Source of the DNA: Syntrophomonadaceae bacterium
GTDB taxonomy: Bacteria; Bacillota; Syntrophomonadia; Syntrophomonadales; Syntrophothermaceae
Reading direction: 5' to 3'
NCBI GenBank assembly: GCA_012719535.1
Contig: JAAYAC010000146.1
Location: 10,337-74,336 of the forward strand
DNA: 64,000 nucleotides
Shown: positions 1,096 through 63,425 of the stretch, in pieces
How positions within the stretch are numbered: position 1 is the first letter of the stretch
Layout: each line of letters starts with the position of its first letter
Notes under the pieces: generated by a model
What the model saw: only the letters and a program-made list of their open reading frames with translations
Databases searched by the model: none
Told to the model about the DNA's origin: nothing
Translations under genes and position numbers: made by a program

Positions 1096-1575
1096 CTACT
1101 TAGCCCCCCTTAACATGGCCACCTTTCCCGTTCTCACCAGTTCCAGGATACCAAAGGGACGCAGTGAGTCCTCTATGGCGTTAATCTTGTTTTCGTCTCC
1201 GGTGGCCTCGATTATCAGGCTGTTGCGACCGATATCCACGATGCGGGCCCGAAAGACTTCTACAATCTGCATGATCTCGCCCCGTATCTGGGAATCGGCC
1301 CTGACCTTGACCAGAGCCAGTTCGCGGTCCACCGTGGGCTCCTCGGTAATATCATAAATCTTGAGGATCTCCACCAGTTTGTGCAGCTGCTTGGTAACCT
1401 GTTCTATAATAACGTCATCGCCATCGACAACTATAGTCATTCGTGATATATTAGGATTTTCGGTCCTTCCCACTGTCAGGCTGTCAATATTGTAGCCCCT
1501 CCGGCGAAAAAGGGTGGCTACCCTGGTCAGGACCCCCGGTTGATTCTCTACTACCACTGACAAGGTGTGCTTCAT
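1096..1575 (-). CDS. ilvN: acetolactate synthase small (regulatory) subunit
   Basis: 159 aa with an ACT-domain N-terminus ([36 protein letters not shown]). Its start overlaps the ilvB stop. Confidence 0.93.
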
Positions 1576-3409: not shown

Positions 3410-5071
3410 TTATTTTTTGAAAACGGCTCCGGTACTGGCGGATTGTACCATCTCAGCATACCGTTTCATATAACCTGATTTAATCTTGGGTTCGGGTACC
3501 TGCCATAGGTCCCTTCTCCTCTGTAGCTCTTCTTCGCTAACTCGTAGTATAAGGCTATGATTGGGTATATCTATGCTTATTATGTCTCCATCCTCTACCA
3601 GGGCAATAGTACCTCCTTGAGCAGCCTCGGGAGAAATGTGCCCAATAGAGGCACCACGTGTTGCACCGGAGAAGCGGCCATCGGTAATCAGAGCCACATC
3701 CTTATCCAACCCCATACCGGCAATCGCCGAAGTAGGGGTCAGCATTTCCCTCATACCCGGTCCTCCCCGGGGGCCTTCATAACGGATGACAACTACCTCG
3801 CCCTTGTTGATGCGGTTGGACAATATAGCAGCTACGGCTTCTTCCTCGGAATTAAAAACCCGGGCCCGGCCTTCATGGCATAGCATATCAGGTGCCACCG
3901 CGCCTTTCTTGACCACCGCGCCCTCCGGGGCCAGGTTACCGAAAAGCACGGCCAAGCCACCGGTGGGGCTGTACGGTTCCTCCACGCTACGAATAATGTT
4001 ATTATCCAAAACCGGACAATCCTGGATGTTTTCTCCTACGGTACGGGTCGTAACCGTGAGGCATTCCCGGTTGACCAGTCCGAGCTTGTCCAGTTCATTG
4101 AGAATGGCCTGAACCCCTCCCGCGGCATACAGATCTTGCATAAAAGCATCTCCGGCCGGCTCGATCTTGCACAGGTGGGGGGTAGTATCACTGAGCTGGT
4201 TGATGGCCTTCAGGTCAAGCCTAACCCCCGCCTCGTGGGCAATAGCCAGCAGGTGCAGGATGGTATTGGTCGAACAACCGATCGCCATGTCGAGCCGCAG
4301 CGCATTCATAAAAGCCGCCTCGGTCATGATATCCAGGGGCCGAATGCCTTTTTCCAGAAGTTCCATAACCTGCATGCCTGCCCGTTTGGCCAACCTGATT
4401 CTCTCAGCATAGACCGCCGGGATGGTTCCGTTACCGGGCAACCCCATGCCAATAGCCTCCGTAAGGCAATTCATGGAATTAGCGGTGAACATGCCGGAAC
4501 AACTTCCGCAACCAGGGCAGGCCACCTCTTCCAGGTGATACAGTTCCTCCACCGACATCCTGCCAGCAGCAACCGCTCCCACGCCCTCAAAAACGGTGTT
4601 CAGGCTTACGAGTTTGCCTCTGAAGTTGCCCGCCAGCATCGGTCCCCCGCTGACAAAAATACTAGGGATGTTCAGCCGCGCGGCTGCCATTAACATCCCG
4701 GGCACGATCTTGTCGCAGTTGGGGATGAAGACCAGGGCATCAAAGGGATGGGCCATGGCCATTACTTCTATGGAATCGGCGATTAACTCCCGGCTGGCCA
4801 GGGAGTACTTCATGCCGATATGGTTCATGGCGATACCATCACAGACCCCAATGGTGGAAAACTCCAGGGGAGTACCTCCTTTCATCCGCACGCCGGCTTT
4901 AACCGCTGCGGCGATCCGGTCCAGATGGATGTGCCCCGGAACAACCTCGTTGGCTGAATTTACTATACCCACCAGGGGTCTGGCCAATTCCTCATCGGTC
5001 AAACCCAAGGCTTTGAACAGTGAACGGTGAGGAGCCTTCTCCAGACCGCTCTTGGCTTGAGCACTCCTCAA
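3410..5071 (-). CDS. ilvD: dihydroxy-acid dehydratase
   Basis: 553 aa ILVD/EDD family protein with the motifs NCDKIVPGM and [11 protein letters not shown] start with SD GGGAGGG 8 nt upstream. Confidence 0.95.
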
Positions 5072-5432: not shown

Positions 5433-6308
5433 TTAATAGATATCTACGCCGTCTACTTTAACCAGTTCGCGGAAGTCCTCCAGCAATTGATTGAAGATCG
5501 GTCCCGGCTCACCGTTGCCAATAACCCGGTCATCAATTTTGGTAACGGGAATGAGTTCCGCAGCGGTACCGGTCAGGAAACACTCGTCGGCGGTGAACAG
5601 GTCATAACGTGGCAAAACGGTTTCCTGCACCGGAATACCCCTTTTCTGCGCCAGTTCGATAACCGCATTGCGGGTAACGCCTTCCAGGATACCCAGGTAT
5701 GGCGCCGGGGTTTTGAGTACCCCGTTCTTGACAATAAAGATATTATCTCCGGTACACTCGGCTACGAACCCTTCCTGGTTCAGAAGGACCGCCTCGGGAA
5801 CACCAGCGATGTTCGCTTCAATCTTGGCCATGATATTGTTTAGGTAGTTGAGTGACTTGATGCGGGGGTTGACTCCTTCGGGAATGTTCCTCCGGGTCGG
5901 AACGGTTATTACTGACAAACCGATCCGGTACAGCTCCTCCGGGTACAGGGTAATTGATGAAGCGATATTCACTATAGTTGGTTGCGGGCACTTGTTCGGA
6001 TCCAGGCCGAGGTCGCCTTTCCCGCGGGAAATCACTAAGCGGATATAGGCATCGGTGAGGTTATTGCGACGGCAGGTCTCGCAAACAACCTCAATCATCT
6101 CCTCCTTGGTCAGGGGGACGGCGAGGTTGATAGCCTTGGCTGAATCATACAGGCGATCAATATGCTCTTGCAGGCGGAAGACCTTGCCATGGTAGGCTCT
6201 GATGCCTTCGAACACCCCATCCCCGTAAAGAAAACCATGGTCAAAAACGGATATCTTGGCCTCTTCTTCCGGCACAAATTCTCCGTTGAGATAAATCCAC
6301 AACCCCAT
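5433..6308 (-). CDS. ilvE: branched-chain amino acid aminotransferase (class IV)
   Basis: The ORF extends to 6317. The ATG at 6308 (MGLWIYLNGEFVPEEEAKISVFDHGFLYGDGVFEGIRAY) has SD GGAG 8 nt upstream. The translation has the class IV aminotransferase fold signature. Confidence 0.9.
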   Translation of the reverse strand: MGLWIYLNGEFVPEEEAKISVFDHGFLYGDGVFEGIRAYHGKVFRLQEHIDRLYDSAKAINLAVPLTKEEMIEVVCETCRRNNLTDAYIRLVISRGKGDLGLDPNKCPQPTIVNIASSITLYPEELYRIGLSVITVPTRRNIPEGVNPRIKSLNYLNNIMAKIEANIAGVPEAVLLNQEGFVAECTGDNIFIVKNGVLKTPAPYLGILEGVTRNAVIELAQKRGIPVQETVLPRYDLFTADECFLTGTAAELIPVTKIDDRVIGNGEPGPIFNQLLEDFRELVKVDGVDIY

Positions 6309-6348
6309 CCTAACCACTCCTTCAGATTGTATGATGCCAACAAAAACT

Positions 6349-6632
6349 AAAAACCCCCCGTCCCCACTTCAGGGACGAGAGGTTAATTCCCGCGGTACCA
6401 CCCTGTTTGCCGCCGCACAGCGGCCACTCCAAACGCATAATCGCGATAGTCCTTGGTAACGGACCAACCAGTCCGGCAGCACCTACTAAGCCTTACGGGC
6501 CGTTCAGATTTGCGACTCGAGGATGAGCTCCACACACTGTATTAGTACCGGTTTTCAGCTACCCCGGCTCTCTTTTAACTAAGGGACAGCGTGTGTCCTG
6601 TTCCCGTCATAGTCTTTCTGGAAAATTGATTT
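6349..6632 (-). promoter_or_regulatory. T-box leader (tRNA-sensing riboswitch), candidate Leu CUC specifier
   Basis: On the minus strand, stem I carries an AGAGAG box and a GGTAGCTGAAA distal loop. The specifier loop reads GGAGCUCA, with CUC at 6525-6527 followed by A. The T-box sequence AACAGGGTGGTACCGCGGGA lies at 6388-6407. A terminator (CCTCTCGTCCC-TGAAGT-GGGGACGGGGGG-TTTTT) lies at 6349-6382, directly upstream of ilvE. Confidence 0.85.
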
Positions 6633-6714: not shown

Positions 6715-8706
6715 CTACAGGCCGACCTTCTTAATGTACTCCGAAAGGTGCAGGCCGGTATTCACCCCTGTGGCCCGCCGGGCCTTCCGCTGCAGGTTCA
6801 TCTGTTTAAACATCTTCCATAGGAGTTGCCGCCCCTCCATGCTCTGCCTGGCCTCTGCTGGAGAAAGTCCTTGCAGCGGTTTTAAGTTCGAACGGTACCA
6901 TTTTTCCAGGTAAGCCACCTTCAGCTCTCTTTCCAGCTGGGGATACTGTTCCCGGACTTCACGGGTCAGAATCCCAAATAAACCTCCCGGTTTGATTTCC
7001 ATCCCCTCGAATTCCAGGCATTCCTTGATACCCTTTTCAAACCTCTCCCTGACAATAGTAAGCTCCTTGTCGCCAAAGGCTGATACCGTAATCCAATTAT
7101 CCCCTACGACGTACTCAGCCACCAGTTCGCTATTCCCCGACTTTCCGCTGATACGGTATTCATACCATACCTGGCAACGCCCCGGGAGGTTATACTTGAC
7201 CCCCCGAATCTTCTCCAGCTTGGCCAGGATGCCATCCCAATCCCGGATAACATACCGGGCACTCAAGAATCGCATCCCATCTTCGCCGAACCTCTCCCCG
7301 CCGCTTCCCGCCAGGACATCTGCAAAGCTGAGGTACTGTCCGGAAAGGTAGCGGTAGGCCGTCAGGGCGCTGACTTCATGGCCGTTGACATAGACCGTGT
7401 TGCCGCCACGAGTGACGATTTCATGTAACATCTCCAACGAGTTCCGGTCTTTCGCCATAATGACCATTTCATCCCCGTTAATGATTAGATCCGCCAGCAC
7501 TCCGGTAAGGAAAAAGACTCCTTGTTCAAAATCGTCTTCATACCTGGTAATCCTTAGATGTACTCCGTAGGAAAGCTCACCCGCCTCCCTTATGTTGTCC
7601 ACCTCGTCGAGAGAACCGAGCAATTCTTCAACGTCCAGTATCTCGTACACGTTGCAGTAAACCTTGAAGGCAAGCGGATTAAGCTCGGAAAGCCCGCTGA
7701 CAATCTGGTGGGAGTCCTGGAATACCTCAACAATCAACCATCCGTCTTCACCTTTTTTCAGGCGAAAAGAGTACTCGCTGTGGTAAACCTCCTCCTCATC
7801 CATGCTTATGGTATAGGCTTTCACAACCGCGTTATTGCCGGCTACCCGGGTTTTGCTGACCCGACCCTCGATTAGCAGAGCACGATGGTTCATAAGCCTC
7901 TCCAACCGGCGGCCCAGGGAGTGGCGGGGAAATTTTTCGCCGCTGAGCAGGGAATAGATATAGGACATATCTTGCCGGCGCCGGGCGTAAAACAGGCTGT
8001 TGACCAGGCGGTGCGGAGACAACCGGGCGGAAATCCTGGCCAGCAGCTCTATCTGCTCCGCTTCACCCAAGTGGTGGGACATGTCCAAATACTTGCGAAA
8101 AAGAAACCGGCCCAGCCCCGGCCTTGTCATGTACTTGACATTAAAACCATACGCTTCCTGCACCAGGAATGATGCTTCGGCCAGGCTGATTTCTATCAGA
8201 TCGGGTAATGATTCTCTTTCTCTTTCATAGTCTTGCACGGTCATATCCGAAATGGCAAAAGAGCTGTGCAGCCCGTCCAGGCTGTATGAAAGGAAAAAAC
8301 AGTCAACATCCAGTGTTCCGGCCGGATTCCTCCACGCCACATCCACCGTAACCTGTCCAGTATGTCGGCTCCTGGTCGCGAAAGCCCGGTAAAACTCCCC
8401 CCGGCAAAACCGGGGCGGTTCCACACAGATACCGGCCATCTGGTATTTTTCCAGAGCCCTGTTGATGGGGCCTTCCAGTTCCTTGCCGTATTCTTCCTTA
8501 AGCAAATGAAGAAATACCACAAATTCCCTGTCGTAAAAGGCGGACAGGCTCTCAATAACGAAAGGGCGTAAATCGGGAGGTATATCTTCGATTATTTCCA
8601 GAGCAAACAACCTGCCCTCATTATTCTCCATGAGATTCTTTATATCTGCAAATAAACTCCTAATTAAGGATTTAGGAAAAAAATTCTTCCTTTTTCGCTC
8701 CTTCAT
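6715..8706 (-). CDS. large hypothetical protein (about 663 aa), no family recognised
   Basis: Long uninterrupted ORF, 695 aa in the track. The ATG at 8706 (MKERKRKNFF...) has GGAG 8 nt upstream. No motif I can assign. The C-terminal segment is WYRSNLKPLQGLSPAEARQSMEGRQLLWKMF. Confidence 0.7.
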   Translation of the reverse strand: MKERKRKNFFPKSLIRSLFADIKNLMENNEGRLFALEIIEDIPPDLRPFVIESLSAFYDREFVVFLHLLKEEYGKELEGPINRALEKYQMAGICVEPPRFCRGEFYRAFATRSRHTGQVTVDVAWRNPAGTLDVDCFFLSYSLDGLHSSFAISDMTVQDYERERESLPDLIEISLAEASFLVQEAYGFNVKYMTRPGLGRFLFRKYLDMSHHLGEAEQIELLARISARLSPHRLVNSLFYARRRQDMSYIYSLLSGEKFPRHSLGRRLERLMNHRALLIEGRVSKTRVAGNNAVVKAYTISMDEEEVYHSEYSFRLKKGEDGWLIVEVFQDSHQIVSGLSELNPLAFKVYCNVYEILDVEELLGSLDEVDNIREAGELSYGVHLRITRYEDDFEQGVFFLTGVLADLIINGDEMVIMAKDRNSLEMLHEIVTRGGNTVYVNGHEVSALTAYRYLSGQYLSFADVLAGSGGERFGEDGMRFLSARYVIRDWDGILAKLEKIRGVKYNLPGRCQVWYEYRISGKSGNSELVAEYVVGDNWITVSAFGDKELTIVRERFEKGIKECLEFEGMEIKPGGLFGILTREVREQYPQLERELKVAYLEKWYRSNLKPLQGLSPAEARQSMEGRQLLWKMFKQMNLQRKARRATGVNTGLHLSEYIKKVGL

Positions 8707-8961
8707 CCCGTACTCCATTCTCAAGTTATCTGGGCAAAATGCCGAAATTAACAATACCGGTGTGTCTATGACTAATTTATCATTTAGTATCACACCTGGC
8801 AAATACGTTTCCGACCTCTAGAACCAAACCTTTTATGTATCTTATGCAGTCCGGTGCTATAACGCCAGCGGCCAGTCTGAGAACAATTAACTGTAAAAGC
8901 AGGATTTGCACATCATGACGAAGAATTAGATCTCGGGCAAATTCAGCAGGTCGGGGGAATT

Positions 8962-11443: not shown

Positions 11444-11518
11444 TGGAGCCGACGGTCAGATTCGAACTGACGACCTGTCGATTACGAATCGACTGCTCTA
11501 CCACTGAGCCACGCCGGC
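11444..11518 (-). tRNA. tRNA-Thr (anticodon CGT)
   Basis: Minus strand reads GCCGGCGTGGCTCAGTGGTAGAGCAGTCGATTCGTAATCGACAGGTCGTCAGTTCGAATCTGACCGTCGGCTCCA. It folds as a cloverleaf with a 7-bp acceptor stem, anticodon loop TTCGTAA, a GTTCGAATC T-loop and an encoded CCA. Confidence 0.93.
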
Positions 11519-12146: not shown

Positions 12147-13823
12147 CTATTCCACTCCGAGGTAAGCATGATAGCGCTCCAGCTCCTCGTCTTTCAACTG
12201 GTTCACCAGGGAAACCGCGTACTGGATAATATCCTCCGCTTCTCCCTGGAGCTGTTGGCGTACCAGTTCCGCAAAGGGAACCGCCTCAATACTCTTGATG
12301 ACCTCCGACAGTGGAGTACTGGCGAAGAAGTTGTTAAACATACCCATCAGGTTGTGAAAAAACTCATGGGTCCATTCCTCGACCGCTTCCCGGTCCCGCT
12401 CCAGGCTGGGGAATTTACGAGCACTGTCCGCCGGTTCGGGCTGCAGGGCCGCAATCAGCGATCGGGCCTCCCGGATGGCTCTTTCAACCGCCTGGGGGGC
12501 CGTTCCTCCTGGAAGTTGTCGTTTGTTGATACATCCTTCCAGGGAGATATGGTCATAGACATCCGTGTCCACAAGCTCGCAGAACCCTTTGAATTCTTGC
12601 ATGTCTAGCTCTTCCAGGGATTTCTGGTGTTCCAGGCAGTACAACACCGCCCTGCCGATCACCTCGTGGGCGGTTCGGAAGGGTAATCCTTTGGCTACCA
12701 GGTAATCAGCCAGGTCCGTGGCGTTGGTAAAACCTCCCCGGGCCGCCTCCTTCATTCGTTCCCGGTTAACCTTCATAGTTCGTAGCATCGGCGCGCAAAT
12801 CCTCAGACACTGCTTAAGGGTATCGACCCCGTCAAACAGCGCCTCTTTGTCCTCCTGAAGGTCCTTGTTATAGGCCAAGGGCAGGCCTTTCATCACGGTC
12901 AGTAGTGCCATCAGGTCACCATAGACCCGGCCTGTCTTCCCCCGTATCAATTCGGCAACATCAGGATTTTTTTTCTGCGGCATGATGCTGGATCCGGTAG
13001 CGAAAGCGTCATCCATTTCTACAAAGCTGAATTCCCCGGTCGACCACAGCACCAGTTCTTCGCACAACCGGGAAAGGTGCATCATGGTTATGCTGGCCAC
13101 GCTGAGGAACTCGAGCGCGAAGTCCCGATCGCTGACTGCGTCCAGGCTGTTTCGCGTCAGCTCGGCAAAACCCAACTGCTGGCGAACATAGTCCCGGTCC
13201 AGGTTGAACCCGGTTCCCGCGAGGGCCCCGGACCCCAGGGGCATGACATCCAGCCGGCGGCGGCAGTCGTTCAACCTGCCCAGATCGCGGTAGAACATCT
13301 CGAAGTAAGCCATGAGGTGATGAGCCAGGGTTACCGGTTGAGCTTTCTGTAAGTGGGTATAGCCGGGCATGATGCTGTCCAGGTGCTGGGCGGCCAAATC
13401 AAGCAGGGTCTCTTCCAGAGCGAGCAGTAACTGCTGGACCTCGTCGAGCTGTTCCCTGAGATACATCCTCATGTCCAGGGCCACCTGGTCGTTACGGCTC
13501 CGGCCGGTATGCAGCTTCTTACCGGTTTCGCCAATCCTTTCAATCAGCCAACTTTCTATCTGGCTATGGACATCTTCGGCCGGGGGGCCGAATTGTAGCA
13601 CTCCGGCCTCGATTTCGGCCAGGATATCCTGTAACGCTTCCAGAATGATATCCTTTTCTTCCTCGCTGATTATCCCCTGGCGGGCCAACATGGCGACATG
13701 GGCCATGCTCCCCTGAATATCCTGTCGGTACATCCGCTGGTCGAACGAGATTGAGGCATTGAACTCATCGGTCAGCTGGTCCGCCGGCCGGGTGAATCTT
13801 CCTCCCCACAGTTTCATAAGCAT
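12147..13823 (-). CDS. argH: argininosuccinate lyase with an approximately 95-aa C-terminal extension
   Basis: 558 aa. The fumarate-lyase signature [12 protein letters not shown] is present and the ArgH-like body runs to about residue 460 ([22 protein letters not shown]). The frame then stays open for about 95 more codons. Confidence 0.9.
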
Positions 13824-15025
13824 CCCTTCCCGGTTTGTCTTTGCATCATGGCCCTCACCTTGAGGGGCAGGCCGAATAAGGCTATGAACCCTTCGGCGTC
13901 TTTGTGGTTGTAAAAATCATCCTCGCCGAAGGTAGCCAGATCCTGGCGGTACAGCGAATAAGGAGATTCCACCCCCACCGGCGTACAGTTGCCCTTGTAC
14001 AGTTTGACCCGTACCCGCCCGGTAACTGTTTCCTGGGTTTTGTTGACAAAGGCATCCAGGGCCTCCCGTAAAGGAGAATACCACCAGCCGTCGTAAACTA
14101 GTTCGGCGTACAGCAGAGCTACCTGTTCCTTGAAATGCATGGTTTTCCGGTCCAGGGTCACGGACTCAAGCTCCCGGTGCGTCAGATACAGCACCGTCCC
14201 CCCGGGGCATTCGTAAACTCCCCGGGATTTCATACCCACCAAGCGGTTTTCAACCAGGCTGATGATACCAACTCCATTGGCACCGGCCACCCGGTTGAGT
14301 TCTTCGATAAGTTCGACCGGGCCGTACTTCCGGCCGTTAATGCCTACCGGTACACCCTCCTCATACTCGATTTCCAGGTAGGTTGGGTTGTCCGGTGCTT
14401 TTTCGGGCGGCACGGTCAACATGTATAAGTCGTCCGGGGGTTCCTGCATCGGGTCTTCCAGGTTGCCGCCCTCATGGGAAAGGTGCCACAAGTTGCGGTC
14501 CCGGCTGTATATTTTCTCTTTGGTAACCGAAACCGGCACATTATGTTTGCGGGCATATTCTATGGCATCCTCACGGGACTTTATGTTCCACTCCCGCCAG
14601 GGAGCCACTATTCTCAGCCCCGGGTTAAGGGCATGACCGCCGACCTCAAACCTCACCTGATCATTGCCCTTGCCGGTTGCCCCGGGAGCTACAGCAACAG
14701 CGCCTTCTTTCTCAGCAACCTCCACCAGTTTCTTGGCAATAAGCGGGCGGGCAAAAGAAGTTCCCAGTAGGTATTTTCCTTCATAAATCGCGCCGGCACG
14801 CAACACCGGGAAAATGAAGTCCCGGGCAAATTCCTCCCGTAAATCCTCAATGTAGATTTTGCTGGCCCCGGACTTGAGCGCCTTTTCCTCCAGGCCCGCC
14901 AGTTCTTCATTCTGGCCCAGGTCCGCGCACATAGCTATGACCTCATAACCGTAGTTTTCCTTTAACCACGGAATGATAATAGAGGTATCCAAACCACCGG
15001 AATACGCCAGAACCACTTTTTCCAC
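13814..15025 (-). CDS. argG: argininosuccinate synthase
   Basis: 403 aa with N-terminal [12 protein letters not shown]-binding motif. GTG start with SD GGAGGAG. Its 3' end overlaps the argH start by 10 nt. Confidence 0.95.
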
Positions 15026-15082: not shown

Positions 15083-16402
15083 TCAAGCCTGACCCCCGGC
15101 CAAAACCAACCGTCCCAGTTGGGGAGTACCGATTTCCTCCAATCCGTACCTGACTCGTACCGCCGGTTTATTGAGAGACATTACCCGGCGCAGGTCAATA
15201 GGGGTCCCTATTACCACCAGCTCGGCCGGTACACGGTTGATGGTCTCCTCCAGTTCCCTTATTTGTTCTTCCCCGTATCCCATGGCCGGGAGCAGTCTGG
15301 AAAGGTGAGGGTACCTGGTGAAAGTGTCCCGGATAGACCCTATCGCGTAGGGGCGGGGGTCCACCAGTTCTCGGGCCCCCAGCTTCTCGGCCGCTATTAC
15401 TCCGGCCCCGTACCTCATTTCTCCATGAGTAAGGGTAGGGCCGTCCTCGATGACCAAAACCTGCTTGCCCCGAACCTCCTCCGGGCGATCCACGGTGATA
15501 GGCGAGTTGGCCATGATAATCGTCGCCCCCGGATTGAGTTTTTGTATTGAGGCTCGCACATGCTCCACTTCCACAGGGTCAGCCGAGTCGACCTTGTTTA
15601 TTATAGCGATGTGGGCCATACGCAAATTCGTTTCACCTGGATAGTAAGTAGTTTCATGTCCCGGCCGGTGTGGATCCACCACTACGATGTGAACATCGGG
15701 ACGATAGAATGGAATATCGTTGTTGCCCCCGTCCCACAGGATGGTATCTGCTTCCTCTTCCGCCTGGTGCAGGATGGCCTCGTAATCAATCCCGGCATAC
15801 ACCACTATTCCATTCTCAATATGCGGTTCGTATTCTTCCCTTTCCTCAATGGTGCACCGGTGCCGATCAAGATCCTGCAAACTGGCAAAACGCTGCACCA
15901 CCTGTTCATCAAGCTTACCGTAAGGCATGGGATGCCTGACGATGGCCACTTTTTTCCCAGCTTCGGTCAGTAGCCTGGCTATATAACGCGTAGTCTGGCT
16001 CTTCCCGGCCCCGGTGCGGACTGCCGTAACCGCCACCACCCGGCGGCGGGATTTTAGCATGGTTCTCGCCGGTCCCATCAGCCTAAAGTCGGCCCCGCAG
16101 GCCGTTACCAGTGAGGCCTGGTGCATTACATACTCGTGCGATACATCGCTGTACGCGAAGACCACCTGGTCGGCCCGGTATTCCTTGATGAGCCTGGGCA
16201 GCTCCTCTTCCGCGTAGATGGGAATACCTTCCGGATAGCCCTCTCCGGCCAGGCACGCCGGGTAAACCCTCCCCTCGATATCCGGTATCTGCGTCGCGGT
16301 GAACCCTACTACTTTGTAGGCCGGGTTGTTGCGAAAGTAGGTATTGAAATTGTGAAAGTCCCTCCCCGCAGCTCCCATAATTATGACTTGGTCGACTTTC
16401 AT
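15083..16402 (-). CDS. P-loop NTPase, COG2403 / cyclic-2,3-diphosphoglycerate-synthetase-like family (function unknown)
   Basis: 439 aa from the ATG at 16402, with SD AGGAGGAAG upstream. Walker A motif is VRTGAGKSQTT. The 537-aa ORF in the track is a spurious 5' extension that overlaps the GNAT gene. The family call is from memory of the COG2403 architecture. Confidence 0.75.
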   Translation of the reverse strand: MKVDQVIIMGAAGRDFHNFNTYFRNNPAYKVVGFTATQIPDIEGRVYPACLAGEGYPEGIPIYAEEELPRLIKEYRADQVVFAYSDVSHEYVMHQASLVTACGADFRLMGPARTMLKSRRRVVAVTAVRTGAGKSQTTRYIARLLTEAGKKVAIVRHPMPYGKLDEQVVQRFASLQDLDRHRCTIEEREEYEPHIENGIVVYAGIDYEAILHQAEEEADTILWDGGNNDIPFYRPDVHIVVVDPHRPGHETTYYPGETNLRMAHIAIINKVDSADPVEVEHVRASIQKLNPGATIIMANSPITVDRPEEVRGKQVLVIEDGPTLTHGEMRYGAGVIAAEKLGARELVDPRPYAIGSIRDTFTRYPHLSRLLPAMGYGEEQIRELEETINRVPAELVVIGTPIDLRRVMSLNKPAVRVRYGLEEIGTPQLGRLVLAGGQA

Positions 16403-16442
16403 CAATCTCTTCCTCCTTGTGGTAGGGATATTGGGATTACTC

Positions 16443-16898
16443 TTAACAGCCACATCCTTTCTCTGTCTCGTCAGTATCCCGGGTAAACACCTTAATATCC
16501 CCCCGCAACAACCACCCCGTACACTGATAAAACTTAATAGCGGCTTCGTTGGTGCCAAAAACAAAAAGATGGATCTTCTTAACTCCCAGTTTAGTGAACT
16601 CCTCGGTAACCTTCTTAACCAGAGCCGTACCGCAACCACGTCTCCGGTAGTCGGGGTGTACCGCCAGGTGGTATACATACCCGCGTCGCCCGTCATACCC
16701 CCCCAGAATCGTACCGATGACCCGTGCCCCGTCCTTCAACACCTGACAGGTAGACGGGTTCCTCGCCAGGAACACCTGCAAACGGTCTTCCTCATCCCCC
16801 CAGCCCAACCCCAGTCCCGGAATAGACCTCCACAGGTCAAGCATCGCTTTAATATCGTTGGACTGTGCCGGTTCGGGTACCCAGGAACATCTCCCCAT
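16443..16898 (-). CDS. GNAT family N-acetyltransferase
   Basis: About 151 aa. Acetyl-CoA binding motif is HPDYRRRGCGTALV. The ATG at 16898 has a GGGGGTG SD. The GTG at 16904 is an alternative start. Confidence 0.85.
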   Translation of the reverse strand: MGRCSWVPEPAQSNDIKAMLDLWRSIPGLGLGWGDEEDRLQVFLARNPSTCQVLKDGARVIGTILGGYDGRRGYVYHLAVHPDYRRRGCGTALVKKVTEEFTKLGVKKIHLFVFGTNEAAIKFYQCTGWLLRGDIKVFTRDTDETEKGCGC

Positions 16899-16916: not shown

Positions 16917-17864
16917 TCACTGCATTACCAGGGCCATAATTGCCTTCTGAGCATGGAGCCGGTTTTCAGCTTCATCGAATACCACCGAATGCGGCCCGTC
17001 CATGACCTCATCAGTCAGCTCCCGTCCTCGCTTGGCAGGCAGGCAGTGCATAATGATTACATCGTCTTTCGCTGCGGCTACCAGCCGGTTGTTAACCTGG
17101 TACCTGGCAAAGTGCTTCTCTTTTTCAGCAGCTTCCTTCTCCTGGCCCATGCTGGCCCAGACATCGGTATAGATTATATCCGCCCCTTCAACTGCCTCGA
17201 AAGGATCCTCCACCACCCACAGCCTGGCACCGGTGGCCTCGGCGTCCGCGCGAGCCAGGGCCAGTATCTCCGGCTGCGGTTCAAATCCCGGAGGCCCGGC
17301 GACCACCACGTCCATCCCTACCTTGGCTCCGCCAAAAAGCAGGGAATGGCACACATTGTTACCATCCCCAATAAAGGCGCATTTTAAACCCTTGAGGGTT
17401 CCTTTATACTCGAGGGCCGTCAGCAGGTCGCCCATCACCTGGCAAGGATGCAGGAGGTCGGTCAACCCGTTGATTACGGGTATGCTGGCATGATGAGCCA
17501 ACTCCAGAACCTCGTCGTGGTCAAAGGTACGGATCATGATGCCGTCCAGGTAACGGGAAAGCGTTAGGGCGGTATCCTTGATGGTTTCCCCGCGCCCCAT
17601 CTGCAAATCGTTGGGACTCAGAAAGAGGCCGTATCCACCCAGTTGATAGATGCCAACTTCGAATGAAACCCGGGTCCGGGTGGATGGTTTCTGGAAGATC
17701 ATTCCCAGAGTTTTACCGGCCAGTAACGGGTGGGGAATCCGGTCCTTCTGTAAAGCCTTCAGTTGCAGGGCCAGGTCAAGTACCTCGGCTACTTCCGCTG
17801 TACTGTAATCGTGGATGCTGATAAAGTCACGTCCCTTGAAGGCTGGATTAAGCTTAACAGTCAT
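16917..17864 (-). CDS. argF: ornithine carbamoyltransferase
   Basis: 315 aa with the motifs STRTRVSFE, the DxxxSMG-type region (DVWASMGQE) and HCLPA. Confidence 0.95.
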   Translation of the reverse strand: MTVKLNPAFKGRDFISIHDYSTAEVAEVLDLALQLKALQKDRIPHPLLAGKTLGMIFQKPSTRTRVSFEVGIYQLGGYGLFLSPNDLQMGRGETIKDTALTLSRYLDGIMIRTFDHDEVLELAHHASIPVINGLTDLLHPCQVMGDLLTALEYKGTLKGLKCAFIGDGNNVCHSLLFGGAKVGMDVVVAGPPGFEPQPEILALARADAEATGARLWVVEDPFEAVEGADIIYTDVWASMGQEKEAAEKEKHFARYQVNNRLVAAAKDDVIIMHCLPAKRGRELTDEVMDGPHSVVFDEAENRLHAQKAIMALVMQ

Positions 17865-17866
17865 TC

Positions 17867-18943
17867 TTAACTGCCCCCTTTCCGGCTCAAGCTGGTAAGA
17901 AATCCCTGGAATACCCGGATAAACTCCTCTTTATCCTGGGGATGATACTGAACCGAGTAGATGGGTAATCGCTTGTGACAAAGCCCTTCCACGGTATGGT
18001 CATTAAGGTGGCGCCGGGTTATTTCCACGTCTCCGGGCACGTTATCGTCCTTTACCACATAGTTGTGGTGCTGCGCAGTGATACTGACGCGGGTTCCACC
18101 TGTCTCTTTTACCGGATGGTTGGCACCGTGGTGCCCGAAGTGCATCTTTGTGACCTCGAGCCCCAGGGCCAGGGCCAGTATCTGATGCCCCAGGCCTACC
18201 CCGGCTATAGGCAGGTGACCCATAAAATGCTTGACTGCTTCAATTACCGGCATCGCCTGGCGCGGATCCCCTGGACCATTGGAGAAAAACAGCCCGGCGG
18301 CACCGAGTTCCTCCAGGGCCGCTATCGAGGTATCGGCCGGAACCACCACCAGGCGGCAACCGGTTTCCTGCAAGAGTTTCAGCAAAGAACGCTTAATTCC
18401 CAGGTCCACTACCGCCAGCAAGGGACCGCTTCCCTCTATCTTATAGACCCGGGGAGTGCTGGCCGCTTTTATTTCCGGCCAGCCCACCGGTTGCAGTTCC
18501 TTTATCCTGGCCAGTAAGCCATCCGGGTTATCCACGTCTTGCGGCCGGGAGGAGATTATACCCAGCATGCTTCCCTTCTCACGCAGCAGGCGGGTTAACT
18601 GCCGGGTATCCACCTGGCTGATGCCTACCACTTTTTCTTGTTGCAGGTACTCGTTCAGGGTCATTTCCATTTTCCAGTTGTTAGGTTCTTTGCTGACCTC
18701 CCGCACCACCAGCCCGGGGGTGAAGGCCCTGGCTCCTTCCGCCTCAGATGGACTGACACCGTAGTTGCCGATCATCGGGTAAGTGAAAACAACCAGTTGG
18801 CCACTGTAGCAGGGGTCGGTAACAACATGCTGATGCCCTACCATTCCGGTGTTGAAAATCACCTCTCCGCCGGCGACACCCTGGTAGCCGAAACCCTCCC
18901 CTATAAACCGGGACCCGTCTTCCAAAACCAGGATCGCTTTCAT
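17867..18943 (-). CDS. carA: carbamoyl-phosphate synthase small-subunit homologue lacking the glutaminase Cys and Glu
   Basis: 358 aa from the ATG at 18943, which forms an ATGA overlap with the argD stop. Full-length CarA-like sequence, but the nucleophile elbow reads AGVGLGHQ and the His/Glu region reads QYHPQD. Confidence 0.85.
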   Translation of the reverse strand: MKAILVLEDGSRFIGEGFGYQGVAGGEVIFNTGMVGHQHVVTDPCYSGQLVVFTYPMIGNYGVSPSEAEGARAFTPGLVVREVSKEPNNWKMEMTLNEYLQQEKVVGISQVDTRQLTRLLREKGSMLGIISSRPQDVDNPDGLLARIKELQPVGWPEIKAASTPRVYKIEGSGPLLAVVDLGIKRSLLKLLQETGCRLVVVPADTSIAALEELGAAGLFFSNGPGDPRQAMPVIEAVKHFMGHLPIAGVGLGHQILALALGLEVTKMHFGHHGANHPVKETGGTRVSITAQHHNYVVKDDNVPGDVEITRRHLNDHTVEGLCHKRLPIYSVQYHPQDKEEFIRVFQGFLTSLSRKGGS

Positions 18944-20145
18944 TCGTTCGCCCACTCCTTTAAAGCCGTCTTTAAGATATCCAGGGCCGCGTCAAGCTCT
19001 TCCCCGGTTATGGTATACGGGGGGAGAAACCTGAGTACACGGGGACCTGCCGAGATAAGGAGTAGCCCTTTTTGCAAGCATAGGTCCACCAGGGGCTTTA
19101 CCTCCCGGGTAAACTCCACCCCCAGCATCAAACCCAGGCCCCTCACCTGTACCACGTCGTCTCTTCCTGCAACCAGAGCCGTAACTTGCTGGTGCAGGTA
19201 GCCGCCCATCCGGGCTACATTCTCCAGAACTCCCGAGTTGACAATGATATCTATCACCCGGCCCGCCACAGCACAGGCCAGGGGATTCCCGCCGAAAGTG
19301 GAAGCGTGGTCTCCGGGGGCAAAGGCCCGGGCCACCTCCTCCCTCGCCAGCAGTGCCCCGATGGGGAAGCCCCCACCCAGTGATTTGGCCAGGGTAACCG
19401 CGTCCGGTTCAATCCCGTAGTGCTGGTAGGCGAACACCTGCCCGGTGCGGCCCATCCCGCATTGAACCTCGTCCAGTACTAGAAGAAGCCCATGCCTATC
19501 GCACAGCTCGCGAAGGCCCTTCATAAACCCGGGGTCGGCCGGGTTGACTCCCCCTTCCCCTTGAACCGGTTCAACTATAATCGCCCCCGTGTTATCCCCC
19601 AGTAGTGCCTTTACGGAATCCAGGTCATTAAAATCGGCGTACTTGAACCCCGGCACCAGCGGAGTAAAGCCCCGGTGGTATTTCTCCTGTCCGGTGGCGG
19701 TGAGGGCACCCAGAGTCCGACCGTGAAATGAATTGTTAAAGACGATGATCTCGCAGCCGGGTTTTCCCTGCCGGCTCCAGTACTTACGCACCAGCTTGAT
19801 AGCAGCTTCATTGGCCTCCGCGCCGCTATTGGCAAAAAAAGCCTTATCCAACCCGGAATACTGGCAGAGCTTGGCGGCCAATTCCACCTGGGGTTCTATC
19901 CAATAGAGGTTGGAGCAATGCCAGAGAGTCTCTGCCTGCTTGTGCAAGGCCTCAAGCAATTCGGCATGGGCGTGTCCCAGGCCGCATACCGCCAGCCCGC
20001 TGGTCAGGTCGAGGTACTCCTTGCCATCAGCATCCCATACCCGGGCGCCCTTTCCCTGTACCAGCGCTACAGGGAAACGCCCATAAGTGTTCATAACATA
20101 TTGCTGTCCTTTTTGTATTACGGCTTCGTTACTAATCAACCTCAC
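18940..20145 (-). CDS. argD: acetylornithine aminotransferase
   Basis: 401 aa class III PLP aminotransferase with the motifs LVLDEVQCGMGRTG and TLAKSLGGGFP. Confidence 0.93.
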   Translation of the reverse strand: MRLISNEAVIQKGQQYVMNTYGRFPVALVQGKGARVWDADGKEYLDLTSGLAVCGLGHAHAELLEALHKQAETLWHCSNLYWIEPQVELAAKLCQYSGLDKAFFANSGAEANEAAIKLVRKYWSRQGKPGCEIIVFNNSFHGRTLGALTATGQEKYHRGFTPLVPGFKYADFNDLDSVKALLGDNTGAIIVEPVQGEGGVNPADPGFMKGLRELCDRHGLLLVLDEVQCGMGRTGQVFAYQHYGIEPDAVTLAKSLGGGFPIGALLAREEVARAFAPGDHASTFGGNPLACAVAGRVIDIIVNSGVLENVARMGGYLHQQVTALVAGRDDVVQVRGLGLMLGVEFTREVKPLVDLCLQKGLLLISAGPRVLRFLPPYTITGEELDAALDILKTALKEWANE

Positions 20146-20148
20146 CCC

Positions 20149-21009
20149 CTATCCGTTTACCACCATGCTGCCGATGCCCTCGTCAGTAAATATCTCCAGT
20201 AAGATAGCATGCGGGATACGCCCATCTATGATATGAGTCCGGGCAACACCACCCCGTAAGGCTTGCACGCAACACTCGATCTTGGGGATCATGCCTCCAC
20301 TTACGATTCCGCAATCGACATAGGAATCAACCTCGGAGACCCTGATACGAGAGATACGACTGGCAGGATCGTTCCGGTCCGCCAGGATACCTGGAACATC
20401 GGTCAGCAGGACAAGTTTGTCGGCGCGCAACGCGCTGGCCACCGCCCCCGCCACGTGGTCGGCGTTAATATTGTAACTGTGCTGATCGTCTCCAATCCCC
20501 ACCGGGCTTATGACGGGAATGTAGCCCTTCTCGGTAATGGTCTCGATCAGCTCCGTGTTGATTTCCCTAACTTCCCCCACATAACCCAGCTGTTCCTTAC
20601 CCGGCATCCGCCGGGCCCGAATAAGCATACCGTCCTTGCCTGACAACCCAACCGCCCGGCCCCCGCTCTCGTTCAGCCCAGCCACGATCTCCTTGTTGAT
20701 TTTGCCCACCAGAACCATCTCCACGATCTCCATGGTAGCCTGGTCGGTGACCCGGAGACCATCGACGAAGCGGGTCTCGATACCTACTCGCTGCAGCATA
20801 GTGGTAATGTCAGGGCCTCCCCCGTGGACCACTATCGGGCGCATCCCCACATAATGCATCAGAACGATGTCCTCCATGACCGACTTTTTCAGCCGGCAGT
20901 CAGTCATGGCGCTACCTCCGTACTTCACGACTACGGTCTTTCCGTAAAACTCTTTTATGTAGGGCAGTGCTTCCACCAGTATGCCTGCCTTTTCACACGC
21001 GGTTATCAT
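20149..21009 (-). CDS. argB: acetylglutamate kinase
   Basis: Translation contains [22 protein letters not shown]. The ATG at 21009 has GGGGGG 6 nt upstream. The ORF extends to 21042 (TTG) as an alternative start. Confidence 0.9.
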
Positions 21010-21133
21010 TAAATCCCCCCAAGCTTGCCCAATCTCTTTCAATGCAACATGCCGGCTTGCCGTTTCAGCAGTGCTTATGCCCCCCCAGCCTTAAACGGCA
21101 CAACCTGCATTTCACAATTTCAAGCCTGACCCC

Positions 21134-22339
21134 CTAGGTTCTATAGCTGGCGTTGATGGTAACGTAATCGTGGGTGAGGTCACATCCCCAGGCCGTAGCC
21201 GCTGCGGAGCCGTCCTTGAGATTAAGACGGATGCGCACGGTTTCCTGCTGCAACTCCTGCCGCGCCCGGTCCTCGTCAAACACCAATCCCATTCCGTTTT
21301 CGGCTACCTGCACCTCACCCAGGTAGATGTCTACCTTGTCAGGGTCAAAGTCGCCTCCTGAATAACCGGCTGCGCAGATTACCCGCCCCCAGTTGGCATC
21401 CTCGCCAAAGACCGCCGCCTTGGTGAGATTGGATGTGGTTATCGCCCTGGCAATCCGGCGGGCTGCATCCTGGGAGCGGGCATTCACTACCTCCACCGCG
21501 ATGAGGCGGGTGGCCCCCTCCCCATCGCGGGCAATCTTCTTGGCCAATTCAATGTTCACATAGTCAAGAGCCTCCCGGAAAGACTGGTACCCTGCCGACG
21601 TCACATCCTTAATCTCCGGGTTGCCTGCCAGCCCGCTTGACAGAATAACTACCATATCGTTGGTGGAAGTGTCCCCATCCACACTCACCATGTTATAGGA
21701 AACGTCAACCGACTCGCGCAGGGCCTGGCGCAAACACTCCTGGCTAATGTTGACATCCGTAGTGATAAAACTTAGCATCGTTGCCATGTTGGGATGTATC
21801 ATCCCCGAACCCTTGGCTATAGCCCCAATACGAACCGGGTGGCCATCGACATCCACCTGAACCGCGATTTCTTTGGGAACCGTGTCGGTGGTCATGATGG
21901 CCTCGGCAGCGCAATGCGACCCGCCTACGCTCAGGGTACGACAGGCCTGTTTAATACCGGCGCACACCCTGTCCATAGGCATGGGAACGCCGATAACACC
22001 GGTTGATGCTACAATAACATCAGCATCATCAATGTGTAGCACCCGGGCAACCGTTTCCGCCATCAGCCGGGTATCCGCCTCTCCCTGCGGACCGGTACAG
22101 GCATTGGCATTCCCGCTGTTGGCCACAATGGCCCGGGCATACCCGTCGGCGAGTACGCTCTGGTTATAGGTGATACAGGAAGCCCGTACCTTGTTGGTGG
22201 TAAACATCCCGGCCGCACGGCATCGCTTAGCGGCGAAAATTACTGCTACATCTTTCTTATCCTTCTTCTTTATTTCCGCACATACCCCCTGGGCGAGAAA
22301 CCCCTGGGGTGCGCATAGTCCATTCTTAAGTAATTCCAT
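21134..22339 (-). CDS. argJ: bifunctional ornithine acetyltransferase / N-acetylglutamate synthase
   Basis: 401 aa. The autoproteolytic site context is PNMATMLSFITTD. Confidence 0.93.
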   Translation of the reverse strand: MELLKNGLCAPQGFLAQGVCAEIKKKDKKDVAVIFAAKRCRAAGMFTTNKVRASCITYNQSVLADGYARAIVANSGNANACTGPQGEADTRLMAETVARVLHIDDADVIVASTGVIGVPMPMDRVCAGIKQACRTLSVGGSHCAAEAIMTTDTVPKEIAVQVDVDGHPVRIGAIAKGSGMIHPNMATMLSFITTDVNISQECLRQALRESVDVSYNMVSVDGDTSTNDMVVILSSGLAGNPEIKDVTSAGYQSFREALDYVNIELAKKIARDGEGATRLIAVEVVNARSQDAARRIARAITTSNLTKAAVFGEDANWGRVICAAGYSGGDFDPDKVDIYLGEVQVAENGMGLVFDEDRARQELQQETVRIRLNLKDGSAAATAWGCDLTHDYVTINASYRT

Positions 22340-22356: not shown

Positions 22357-23415
22357 TTACGGAAAGATGCCGCCGAACTTCAGTCCCTCGGTTTCCTCCA
22401 CGCCAAACATGAGATTGAAATTCTGGATGGCCTGGCCTGAAGCCCCTTTAGTCAGGTTATCCAGAGCCGAGATAACAATCACCTTGCCCTTCACCTCATC
22501 AATAAACAGGCCTATATCCAGGAAGTTGCTGCCGTAAACCCATCTAGTATGCGGGGATACCCCCTCTGGCAACATCCTGATAAAATACTCCCCCGCATAT
22601 TGGTCATGAAAGGCATCCCTCACTTGCGACGCAGTCACTCCCGGCCGCAATCGTGCGTAGGCGGTAGTCAGTATGCCCCTGCTCATGGGGATGAGGTGGG
22701 GAGTAAATGTAACCTCCACATCCTGTCCGGCAACCAGGCTCAGTTCCTGGACTATCTCGGGTAGGTGCCGGTGGTTGCCTACCCCGTACGCTTTAACCCC
22801 TTCGTTCACCTCACAGAAGTGGCGGGTAAGCTTCAAACTCCTCCCAGCGCCCGATACCCCGCTTTTGGAATCGACAATTATTCCTTCAGTGGCAATGAGC
22901 CCGTTTCTTAACAAGGGAGCTAGGGCCAGAATAGCCCCGGTAGGGAAACATCCCGGATTAGCAACCACCCTGGCTTCACGCACGCGGGAACGGTATAACT
23001 CGGGCAAACCGTACACGGCCGATTTCAGCATGTCCGGCGCCTCATGCACTACTTCATAGTACTCCTCATACACCCGGGGATCCTGGAGCCGGAAATCGGC
23101 CCCCAGGTCAATACACCTCACGCCGGCTTCGACGAGCTCTTTGACCACCGGGACAGACAACCCGTGAGGCAGGGCCAGAAACACTGCCTGGCACTCCTGT
23201 TTCATTCGGTTAAGGTCGGTTTGTTCACACCTGGCTTCCGTAAAACGGAGCAGGTGCGGATAGACCTCGACAATATCTTTCCCAATGTTCTCGGTAGAAA
23301 AAACGATTACCGCCCGGGCATCCCTATGCCCTCCCAGTATCCGCAGCAAATCGGCGGCAGTGTAACCGTCCCCGATTATTCCTACCGGTATCACATTCAT
23401 TACCTCCCTGTTCAT
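22357..23415 (-). CDS. argC: N-acetyl-gamma-glutamyl-phosphate reductase
   Basis: About 350 aa with the active-site region VANPGCFPT. The start is ambiguous: ATG 23415, ATG 23400 or GTG 23394 around a GGGAGG SD. Confidence 0.92.
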   Translation of the reverse strand: MNREVMNVIPVGIIGDGYTAADLLRILGGHRDARAVIVFSTENIGKDIVEVYPHLLRFTEARCEQTDLNRMKQECQAVFLALPHGLSVPVVKELVEAGVRCIDLGADFRLQDPRVYEEYYEVVHEAPDMLKSAVYGLPELYRSRVREARVVANPGCFPTGAILALAPLLRNGLIATEGIIVDSKSGVSGAGRSLKLTRHFCEVNEGVKAYGVGNHRHLPEIVQELSLVAGQDVEVTFTPHLIPMSRGILTTAYARLRPGVTASQVRDAFHDQYAGEYFIRMLPEGVSPHTRWVYGSNFLDIGLFIDEVKGKVIVISALDNLTKGASGQAIQNFNLMFGVEETEGLKFGGIFP

Positions 23416-23447: not shown

Positions 23448-23476
23448 ATTATACATATCGCCGCATATCCTTGCAA
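23448..23476 (-). promoter_or_regulatory. sigma-A promoter of the arg operon with an overlapping ARG-box-like site
   Basis: TTGCAA (23471-23476), a 17-nt spacer, then TATAAT (23448-23453) on the minus strand. TGTATAATTATTAG (23442-23455) matches 11 of 14 positions of the TGAATWWWWATTCA ArgR/AhrC half-site consensus as I recall it. Confidence 0.6.
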
Positions 23477-63249: not shown

Positions 63250-63425
63250 TAAGCTTTCACCCCCTTTACAGCAGGTTTTCCGGTGAGGGCCCAAAAAATT
63301 AGACCCCCGCAGACAATGGTGCAGAGGTCATAACTTACCTGTAAGTCTCTATAACCTCGGTGGGCTGAACCCTCAATTAAGGCTTACCGCCACCCACTGT
63401 CTACGGTCAATCAATATTAAGTTGG
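63250..63425 (-). promoter_or_regulatory. L10 (rplJ) leader with attenuator hairpin
   Basis: A 185-nt untranslated spacer between rplA and rplJ. The minus strand contains CCGTAGACAGTGGGTGGCGGTAAGCCTTAATTGAGGGTTCAGCCCACCGAGG, then the terminator-like hairpin GACCTCTGC-ACCATTGTCT-GCGGGGGTC with TAATTTTTT (63293-63329). The position and the attenuator are consistent with the Firmicute L10 leader. The match to that RNA family has not been verified. Confidence 0.5.

Follow-up and report, generated by a model that had tools for sequence, protein, structure and literature searches.

Introduction

Carbamoyl-phosphate synthetase (CPS) provides the closest described relatives of the gene reported here. 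In Escherichia coli CarA, the small subunit, glutaminase activity requires both Cys269 and His353 (PMC6245113), and the isolated large subunit CarB is ammonia-dependent (PMC8121099). The view that all bacterial CPSs depend on glutamine, found in textbooks and in recent papers, is a long-standing hypothesis, and bacterial ammonia-dependent CPS is an acknowledged gap in knowledge (PMC8121099). Bacterial CPS is listed as type II only in a 2018 review of carbamoyl-phosphate sources (PMC6022934). Bacillus subtilis has a second, arginine-dedicated CPS beside the one of its pyr operon, and the CarA of the arginine enzyme is regarded as glutamine-dependent (PMC6245113). In mitochondrial CPS I, the glutaminase-like S2 domain is a non-catalytic part of an ammonia-dependent CPS in which the ancestral ammonia tunnel is altered (PMC4655335). 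For the orphan large subunit CarB2 (BT3866) of Bacteroides thetaiotaomicron, ammonium-dependent carbamoyl-phosphate synthesis at high ammonium has been proposed (PMC8121099). Here, we describe a carA-like gene that has neither the codon for the catalytic cysteine nor a carB neighbor. It lies in the arginine operon of a 64,000-nucleotide stretch of DNA (hereafter the window) from a Syntrophomonadaceae bacterium (GenBank assembly GCA_012719535.1, contig JAAYAC010000146.1, positions 10,337 to 74,336 of the forward strand).

The encoded protein has the two-domain architecture and the fold of E. coli CarA (PDB 1JDB, 1A9X), but its gene has no carB beside it or elsewhere in the 64 kb. The engineered Cys269 mutants of E. 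coli, such as C269S (1C30/1C3O), are its laboratory equivalent. Unlike in those mutants, the loss is natural here and is accompanied by the changes Glu355 to Gln, Ser47 to Cys, Asn311 to His and the deletion of Pro358-Gly359-Pro360. The S2 domain of CPS I (human CPS1, 5DOT/5DOU) is likewise derived from CarA and has its catalytic Cys replaced (Ser294 in the human enzyme). However, CPS I is a fusion in a single polypeptide, requires N-acetylglutamate and retains both the His and the Glu. The window protein stands alone, with Gly where the human enzyme has Ser and without the Glu, and no partner is encoded in its operon. By analogy, its mode of action would come nearest to that of the CPS I S2 domain or of the C269S mutant. 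BT3866 is its mirror image, since both are CPS components without the usual partner gene, the orphan being the large subunit there and an apparently dead small subunit here. The operon logic and gene order are those of argCJBD-carAB-argF in B. subtilis, where carB is present.

A CarA Homolog Without the Glutaminase Nucleophile

The 358-aa product of the carA-like gene (Table 1) has a full-length N-terminal CPSase_sm_chain domain (PF00988, 161 bits, cut-off 27), and its C-terminal class I glutamine amidotransferase (GATase) domain matched PF00117 at 140 bits (cut-off 22.8). The CarA equivalog models TIGR01368 (372.7 bits, cut-off 307.35) and NF009475 (359.5 bits, cut-off 221) were also passed. 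In a phmmer search against PDB, residues 2-337 were aligned to residues 4-356 of E. coli CarA (E 1e-77). The AlphaFold2 model had a predicted local distance difference test (pLDDT) score of 94.8 and a predicted template-modeling score (pTM) of 0.92. Foldseek matched it to E. coli CarA taken from the holoenzyme with a template-modeling (TM) score of 0.93 at 36% identity, and to the N-terminal moiety of human CPS1 with a TM score of 0.86. By sequence and structure, the protein is a member of the CarA family, and the original prediction, made from the letters alone, was right in calling it full-length and CarA-like. Its close relatives are few. Among 5.8 billion clustered proteins, the closest were only P0001 and P0002 (described below), and the next were canonical CarAs with at most 48% identity. 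A single close cluster (571 bits) was found among 1.84 billion 50%-identity representatives, after which the score fell to 318 bits, and 185,579 GTDB representatives, which do not include the species of the window, yielded canonical CarAs only (at most 45% identity).

The phmmer alignment placed PIAGVGLGHQ of the window protein on PVFGICLGHQ of E. coli CarA and YHPQD on GHPEA, and a MAFFT alignment with nine homologs agreed. The elbow Cys of class I GATases (G-x-C-x-G) is missing, the motif being GVGLGHQ with Gly250 in the column of Cys269. His334 is the retained His353, and Gln336 stands in the column of Glu355. These replacements, Gly at the nucleophile and QYHPQD in place of HPE, had been read from the sequence in the original prediction; both were borne out, and no Cys or Glu in a shifted position was found. 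Their codons, GGC and CAG, are a single nucleotide away from TGC and GAG, respectively. The three-residue Pro358-Gly359-Pro360 tunnel loop that follows HPE is deleted. Cys45 and His292 occupy the columns of Ser47 and Asn311, and further changes relative to E. coli CarA are Tyr39 to His, Glu41 to His and Gly313 to Asn.

The columns of Ser47, Asn311, Tyr39, Glu41 and the tunnel loop are nearly invariant in canonical CarAs. Cys269 is present in 223 of 223, Ser47 and Asn311 in 222 each, and Ser47, Asn311 and the Pro358-Gly359-Pro360 loop are each at least 93% conserved. Of the 75 columns conserved to at least 90% in these 223 sequences, the window protein keeps 65, and it keeps 27 of the 30 conserved columns of the N-terminal domain. 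All ten lost columns (Y39, E41, S47, I268, C269, N311, E355 and P358-G359-P360) belong to, or adjoin, the active-site motifs and the tunnel loop. Nearly every canonical homolog among the matches listed has a weak match to Peptidase_C26 (PF07722), whereas P0001 and P0002 have none.

According to literature cited in PMC6245113, and reportedly to Rubino et al. in 1986, replacements of Cys269 end the use of glutamine while ammonia-dependent synthesis stays. With Cys changed to Gly, Glu changed to Gln, and two glutamine-site residues as well as the tunnel loop altered, the window protein is predicted to be unable to hydrolyze glutamine. It fails the defining catalytic features of a glutamine-hydrolyzing small subunit and is also without an adjacent partner, and it should therefore not be filed as a CarA of Enzyme Commission (EC) number 6.3.5.5.

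Recurrence in Independent Assemblies and Purifying Selection

L002, a Logan contig from a different sample (SRR18360461), matches the window at 99.13% nucleotide identity over 10.8 kb. Its copy of the gene carries both substituted codons, GGC and CAG, and differs from that of the window at five positions, four of which are synonymous; the product, P0001, is different in one residue. A third sample provided the contig L001 (SRR30978039), which encodes P0002, a 70%-identical ortholog with Gly (GGC) and Gln (CAA, synonymous to CAG) at the two catalytic columns. P0002 also has the loop deletion, and the pocket changes Cys45, His292, Asn294 and His39 are common to it and the window protein. The gene order in L001 is that of the window, argC-argJ-argB-argD-carA-argF, where carA stands for the Cys-less gene here and in the orders below. 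The question whether orthologs share the substitutions was thus answered by both contigs, and the frame, which had been described as otherwise intact, is open in L002 and L001 as well.

Between the window and L001, the proportion of synonymous differences in the gene (pS) was 0.78, which is saturated, and that of nonsynonymous differences (pN) was 0.19, giving a pN/pS of 0.245 compared to 0.11-0.22 in five neighboring arg genes. By domain, pN/pS was 0.20 in the N-terminal part and 0.23 in the GATase part. The chance that a random frame of 358 codons would remain open is, by arithmetic, about 3e-8. The gene is under purifying selection in both domains. Together with the loss of the nucleophile and the Glu and with the CarA-like model, this result gives good support to the earlier proposal of a structurally retained pseudo-glutaminase.

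Operon Context and the Missing carB

The operon has the order argC-argJ-argB-argD-carA-argF-GNAT-ArcE-like-argG-argH (Table 1). The ATGA overlap with argD and the gap of two nucleotides to argF, both pointed out in the original prediction, were confirmed from the sequence. A tblastn search with five CarB proteins found no carB in any frame of the 64-kb window (best E 0.6), in agreement with the earlier statement, and the window contains no second carA-like gene. A 537-aa open reading frame (ORF; 15083-16696, minus strand) was considered as half of a CarB and rejected; it consists of the 439-aa ArcE-like gene and, upstream of it, 98 in-frame codons overlapping the gene for GNAT. The ArcE-like gene starts at the ATG at 16402, with GGAGG upstream. 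Upstream of argC, matches to the ARG-box were not above chance (16 compared to 17.4 expected), and no role of ArgR is claimed.

Table 1. Positions of the features in the window (aa, amino acids)
Feature	Position	Strand	Basis or remark
carA-like gene, 358-aa CarA homolog, predicted pseudo-glutaminase small subunit	17867-18943	-	ORF, Pfam/TIGRFAM, alignment, AlphaFold2
Gly250 (E. coli Cys269 column), elbow GVGLGHQ	18194-18196	-	GGC; phmmer, MAFFT; same codon in L002 and L001
His334 (retained E. coli His353)	17942-17944	-	CAT; phmmer, MAFFT
Gln336 (E. coli Glu355 column)	17936-17938	-	CAG; phmmer, MAFFT; CAA in L001
Cys45 (E. coli Ser47 column)	18809-18811	-	TGC; alignment; common to P0002 and P0130
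His292 (E. coli Asn311 column)	18068-18070	-	CAC; alignment
Promoter-like site TTGCAA-17-TATAAT upstream of argC	23448-23476	-	Consensus match; such sites not clearly above chance regionally
argC	22357-23415	-	Operon, upstream of carA-like gene
argJ	21134-22339	-	Operon, upstream of carA-like gene
argB	20149-21042	-	Operon, upstream of carA-like gene
argD, acetylornithine aminotransferase	18940-20145	-	Stop overlaps start of carA-like gene (ATGA)
argF, ornithine carbamoyltransferase	16917-17864	-	Starts 2 nucleotides past stop of carA-like gene; slot of carB in other lineages
GNAT acetyltransferase, 151 aa from ATG at 16898	16443-16898	-	Library matches, synteny
439-aa P-loop protein of the cDPG-synthetase/ArcE kind	15083-16402	-	Weak profile match, fold
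argG	13814-15025	-	Operon
argH, 558 aa, with C-terminal extension of about 100 aa	12147-13823	-	Operon
argH C-terminus	12147-12455	-	No Pfam match
tRNA gene	11447-11518	-	Just downstream of argH
695-aa ORF	6715-8802	-	No Pfam match
T-box leader	6368-6619	-	99.9 bits
Branched-chain aminotransferase gene	5433-6317		Downstream of T-box leader
ilvD	3410-5071		Downstream of T-box leader
Acetolactate synthase gene	1572-3263		Downstream of T-box leader
AAA_22 ATPase fragment, 179 aa	23635-24174	+	Between YaaH and argC
ORFs among translation genes, two of 1100 aa	54670-61558		Most likely rpoC and rpoB
L10 leader	63287-63424	-	Upstream of rplJ

Cys-Less CarAs in Other Lineages

The window protein is no isolated case, and CarAs with Gly in place of the Cys, which the original prediction did not mention, are common in metagenomes. 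The Cys is missing from 46 of the 268 retrieved homologs. The searches behind this share started from a Cys-less query and drew on representatives of 50%-identity clusters, and it is not a prevalence estimate. It is replaced by Gly in 38 sequences and by Ser in three, with single cases of Phe, Ala, Val, Asp or Glu. That Gly prevails so strongly may be due to strain in the backbone at the nucleophile elbow. Many of these proteins are also without His353 and/or Glu355. Wherever the source gives a name, it is 'glutamine-hydrolyzing carbamoyl-phosphate synthase small subunit', which amounts to a systematic annotation error. The hosts of the named sequences are uncultured Clostridiales, Peptococcaceae and Gracilibacteraceae.

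In all six of the other lineages with readable context, a full-length carB (1050-1099 aa) lies directly 3' of the Cys-less carA. The order is argD-carA-carB-argF-GNAT in L083/L084/L085 (P0130/P0269, NLO82146.1) and in L088/L089 (P0127). In L095 (P0125), argJ-argD-carA-carB is followed by two opposite-strand genes and then by argF-argG-argH, and in L086/L087 (P0204/MCL1853466.1) carA-carB stands alone. The two remaining lineages have the pair among pyr genes, as pyrB-pyrC-carA-carB-pyrK-pyrD-pyrF-pyrE in L096 (P0277) and as pyrC-carA-carB in L090. The latter, the single metagenome match to PIAGVGLGHQI, was considered as a second orphan and rejected, for it is a different Cys-less CarA of a pyr operon and has its carB. 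These partnered proteins are candidate bacterial ammonia-dependent CPSs.

Like the pairs of these uncultured Clostridia (P0269, P0127, P0125, P0204, P0277 and L090), the window protein has Gly in place of Cys. Its gene occupies the same slot after argD as in three of them, with argF-GNAT directly next in two. The comparison with argCJBD-carAB-argF that had been drawn originally is borne out, in operons whose CarA is Cys-less too. In contrast to the window gene, all of them have carB immediately downstream; the identity of their proteins to the window protein is 38-43%. The window arrangement is thus the layout argD-carA-carB-argF-GNAT minus carB, cleanly. P0130/P0269 has the rare S47C and N311H and the loop deletion in common with the window protein, which suggests that the Cys was lost before carB in the window lineage.

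In a neighbor-joining tree of 269 sequences, many Cys-less sequences cluster, which may be long-branch attraction. A profile built from 23 Cys-less CarAs ranked canonical CarAs on top in the set of 5.8 billion proteins, indicating that the Cys-less set is heterogeneous and not a tight family. Among 80 GTDB CarA loci, the sole residue other than Cys at the nucleophile column was a Tyr in a metagenome-assembled genome (MAG) of the Syntrophaceae (L055, JAUXBI010000199.1), which could be an error or another inactive variant.

Relatives Within the Syntrophomonadaceae

The original prediction had looked to the Peptococcaceae for related organisms. The group is most likely the Syntrophomonadaceae instead, as indicated by the 439-aa protein, a collinear MAG and Syntrophomonas wolfei. 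The 439-aa protein, encoded by the third gene downstream of the carA-like gene, has 75-79% identical homologs across this family, including S. erecta, S. curvata and many MAGs. Collinearity with the window extends over the whole region in the Syntrophomonadaceae MAG L093/L094 (GCA_050949765.1), which has the order radical SAM, enoyl-CoA hydratase, YaaH, argCJBD, argF, GNAT, ArcE-like, HhH-GPD, HD, ilvE, ilvD and ilvB. Its Arg proteins are 73-83% identical to those of the window, and those of L001 are slightly closer (74-84%). The MAG has a 204-nucleotide spacer and no carA-like gene between argD and argF, and no argG-argH at the syntenic place.

The proteome tables of S. wolfei list ornithine carbamoyltransferase (OTC) as Swol_2287 and argC as Swol_2291, beside ribosomal genes (PMC4324140). 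The three loci between them leave room only for argD, argB and argJ, and not for a carA-like gene. S. wolfei also expresses carB and carA (Swol_1281 and Swol_1282), which lie between pyrK and pyrC-pyrB (PMC4324140). The family, of which S. wolfei is the type species, has a pyr-operon CPS. Two lineages of the family have the carA-like gene (the window and L001), and at least two do not.

An ArcE-Like Neighbor

The 439-aa protein gave only a weak cobW P-loop match among profiles and a weak phmmer match (E 2e-4) to the cyclic 2,3-diphosphoglycerate (cDPG) synthetase 9sxb; scans of PHROGs and NCBIfam gave nothing useful. Its AlphaFold2 model (pLDDT 85) was matched best by the cDPG synthetase 8oru in Foldseek (E 1e-16), followed by LpxK, and its homologs are named 'GTPase' or 'cDPG synthase'. 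ArcE of Thermococcus kodakarensis (TK2200, about 440 aa) catalyzes the reaction citrulline + NH3 + ATP <-> arginine + ADP + Pi, and its homologs, 'putative GTPases', often adjoin OTC and occur in Bacillota (PMC11032458, PMC13260591). The similarities reported or cited for ArcE are to cDPG synthetase (distant) and LpxK (PMC11032458). The window gene sits two genes downstream of argF, which encodes OTC. From sequence and predicted fold, its product is probably an ArcE-type arginine synthetase. The L093 operon ends with argF-GNAT-ArcE-like without argG-argH, which suggests a biosynthetic use of the enzyme. Arginine made from free ammonia is what both the ArcE-like enzyme and a dead-glutaminase CPS subunit would point to, and we regard their presence in the same operon as suggestive only.

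Discussion

The explanation that we favor, to which we give an even chance, is that the carA-like gene encodes a non-catalytic small subunit serving a CarB encoded elsewhere, which would result in ammonia-dependent synthesis of carbamoyl phosphate. The protein would have been kept for docking onto the large subunit and supporting its activity. The ancestral state would be a pair of Cys-less CarA and CarB in an arginine operon of the order argD-carA-carB-argF-GNAT, as still found in other Clostridia, from which the adjacent carB was lost in this Syntrophomonadaceae lineage. With that carB lost, the partner would be encoded elsewhere, most likely as a pyr-operon CarB of the S. wolfei kind. Since the subunit is predicted to be unable to hydrolyze glutamine, any CarB bound to it would have to take free ammonia, as in mitochondrial CPS I. 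The translational coupling of its gene in the arg operon would tie its production to active arginine synthesis, and it would divert part of the CarB pool to an ammonia-dependent and ATP-cheaper synthesis of carbamoyl phosphate. This would fit an energy-limited and ammonia-rich habitat, where a syntroph living near the thermodynamic limit in digesters could save ATP by bypassing glutamine synthetase. The binding to a distant CarB, the use of ammonia, the exchange of subunits and this physiological rationale are steps that we infer.

The original prediction had proposed that the protein serves an ammonia-dependent CPS or, alternatively, acts as a regulatory or scaffold subunit for a CarB encoded elsewhere. 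Both proposals have indirect support from the conserved N-terminal domain, which contacts CarB, and from carAB in the pyr operon of S. wolfei. The distribution of sequence constraint is consistent with docking. The N-terminal domain of CarA co-evolves with residues 335-550 of CarB, with 17 inter-protein couplings of which 88% are true contacts (Hopf et al. 2014 supplement). Compared to canonical CarAs, the window protein has an identity of 51% in this domain, a value within their own range (mean 59%, 5th percentile 49%), and of 49% in the GATase domain, which is outside it (mean 61%, 5th percentile 54%). The Cys-less CarAs beside carB likewise combine a conserved N-terminal domain with a drifted GATase domain. 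Read most simply, this means that the window protein is subject to the constraints that act on the partnered Cys-less subunits and would still dock on CarB.

Several points weigh against a subunit for a distant CarB. The 64 kb available of this genome contain no carB, and the carA-like gene was otherwise found on short Logan contigs only. An orphan subunit would have to compete with the canonical CarA that is co-translated with CarB. Equally close relatives (L093, and S. wolfei by inference) manage without the gene, so that it is dispensable in the family, and it is the least constrained gene of the operon, with the highest pN/pS. The neighbor-joining tree does not place its product as sister to P0130, which leaves the order of the losses of Cys and carB unsettled; for this reason, and with possible long-branch attraction, no monophyly is claimed. 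To our knowledge, there is no biochemical evidence for any Cys-less bacterial CarA. The literature searched contained no description of a bacterial CarA without the catalytic Cys, and the 2018 review of carbamoyl-phosphate sources is likewise silent (PMC6022934).

A new function independent of CarB, either ligand binding or regulation through the remodeled glutamine pocket or a scaffold for OTC, ArgD and the ArcE-like protein, seems unlikely to us but deserves to be taken seriously. It would agree with an operon that is without carB across the whole divergence between the window and L001, with the tight translational coupling of the gene to argD and argF, and with the four pocket changes kept in P0002. 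The dead GATase domain, moreover, is constrained like the N-terminal domain, suggesting that the pocket still does something. However, a protein freed from CarB should lose the constraint on its N-terminal domain, and the conservation of this domain is indistinguishable from that in Cys-less CarAs with carB. ArcE and the Cys-less gene also do not co-occur, since L093 has only the former and L084 and L088 have only the latter, and we know of no CarA with a function independent of CarB. A functionless relic that is on its way out after the loss of carB is improbable and is disfavored here, even though close relatives (L093, and S. wolfei by inference) have fully lost the gene, its pN/pS is the highest in the operon and several active-site residues have decayed. 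Against such a relic stand a frame open in two lineages at saturated synonymous divergence, with a pN/pS of 0.25 and 65 of 75 conserved columns kept, the predominance of synonymous changes between 99%-identical strains (four of five) and the very confident AlphaFold2 model.

The combination of S47C, N311H and the kept His353 in the window protein, P0002 and P0130, when most other Cys-less CarAs are without His353, together with the retention of Cys45 at 70% identity, could be taken to mean that the protein is still a glutaminase in which Cys45 is a relocated nucleophile acting with His334 and/or His292. We consider this very improbable. The combination occurs in only two independent lineages, neither the Glu of the triad nor the tunnel loop is left, Ser47 presumably contacts the substrate and is not placed as a nucleophile, and we know of no precedent for such a relocation in class I amidotransferases. 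An artifact, with base errors at the two codons or with carB lost through a false join, had been allowed for in the original prediction, and both codons are indeed one nucleotide off the canonical ones. This explanation is refuted by the independent L002 assembly, which comes from another sample at 99.1% identity and repeats both codons and the junction of the carA-like gene with argF, and by the third sample, L001, with the same residues and gene order.

A broader picture can be drawn, which we offer tentatively and hold to be somewhat doubtful. Bacteria would have CPS I-like ammonia-dependent CPSs built on dead-glutaminase CarAs, in both arg and pyr operons. The window would encode a free-standing, arginine-regulated 'swap-in' form that replaces the active CarA on the housekeeping CarB and thereby switches what would be the only synthetase of the cell from glutamine to free ammonia while arginine is made. 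Together with the ArcE-like enzyme, this would make an ATP-saving ammonia route to arginine. As clonable candidates for bacterial ammonia-dependent CPS, the Cys-less CarAs may also offer a bacterial counterpart to the way in which mitochondrial CPS I arose. The window gene itself, a putative pseudo-enzyme subunit under selection after its partner gene left the operon, offers a test case for the retention of non-catalytic subunits and perhaps for regulation through an exchange of subunits. It is relevant, too, to the nitrogen and energy economy of syntrophic fatty-acid oxidizers in anaerobic digesters.

Other Features of the Window

In several distant lineages, a small GNAT gene is found either after argF or before the ArcE-like gene (L084 15515-16027; L088 15468-15974; L093 9582-9968; L091 9468-9899). 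The GNAT product had generic matches and very weak ones to models of N-acetylglutamate synthase, and it could be a short form of this enzyme. In ArgH, the family model ends at residue 456, and the last residues, about 100 in number, are acidic and helical-looking; they could be an extension, a fused small gene or the result of a lost stop codon. The AAA_22 fragment is not there in L093 and may be the remnant of a mobile element. At the syntenic place of the 695-aa ORF, L093 has a 661-aa gene that is likewise without a Pfam match. The genes downstream of the T-box leader are the branched-chain aminotransferase gene, ilvD and the acetolactate synthase gene. The assignment of the two long ORFs among the translation genes to rpoC and rpoB is based on size and position. 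The tRNA gene and the L10 leader are ordinary.

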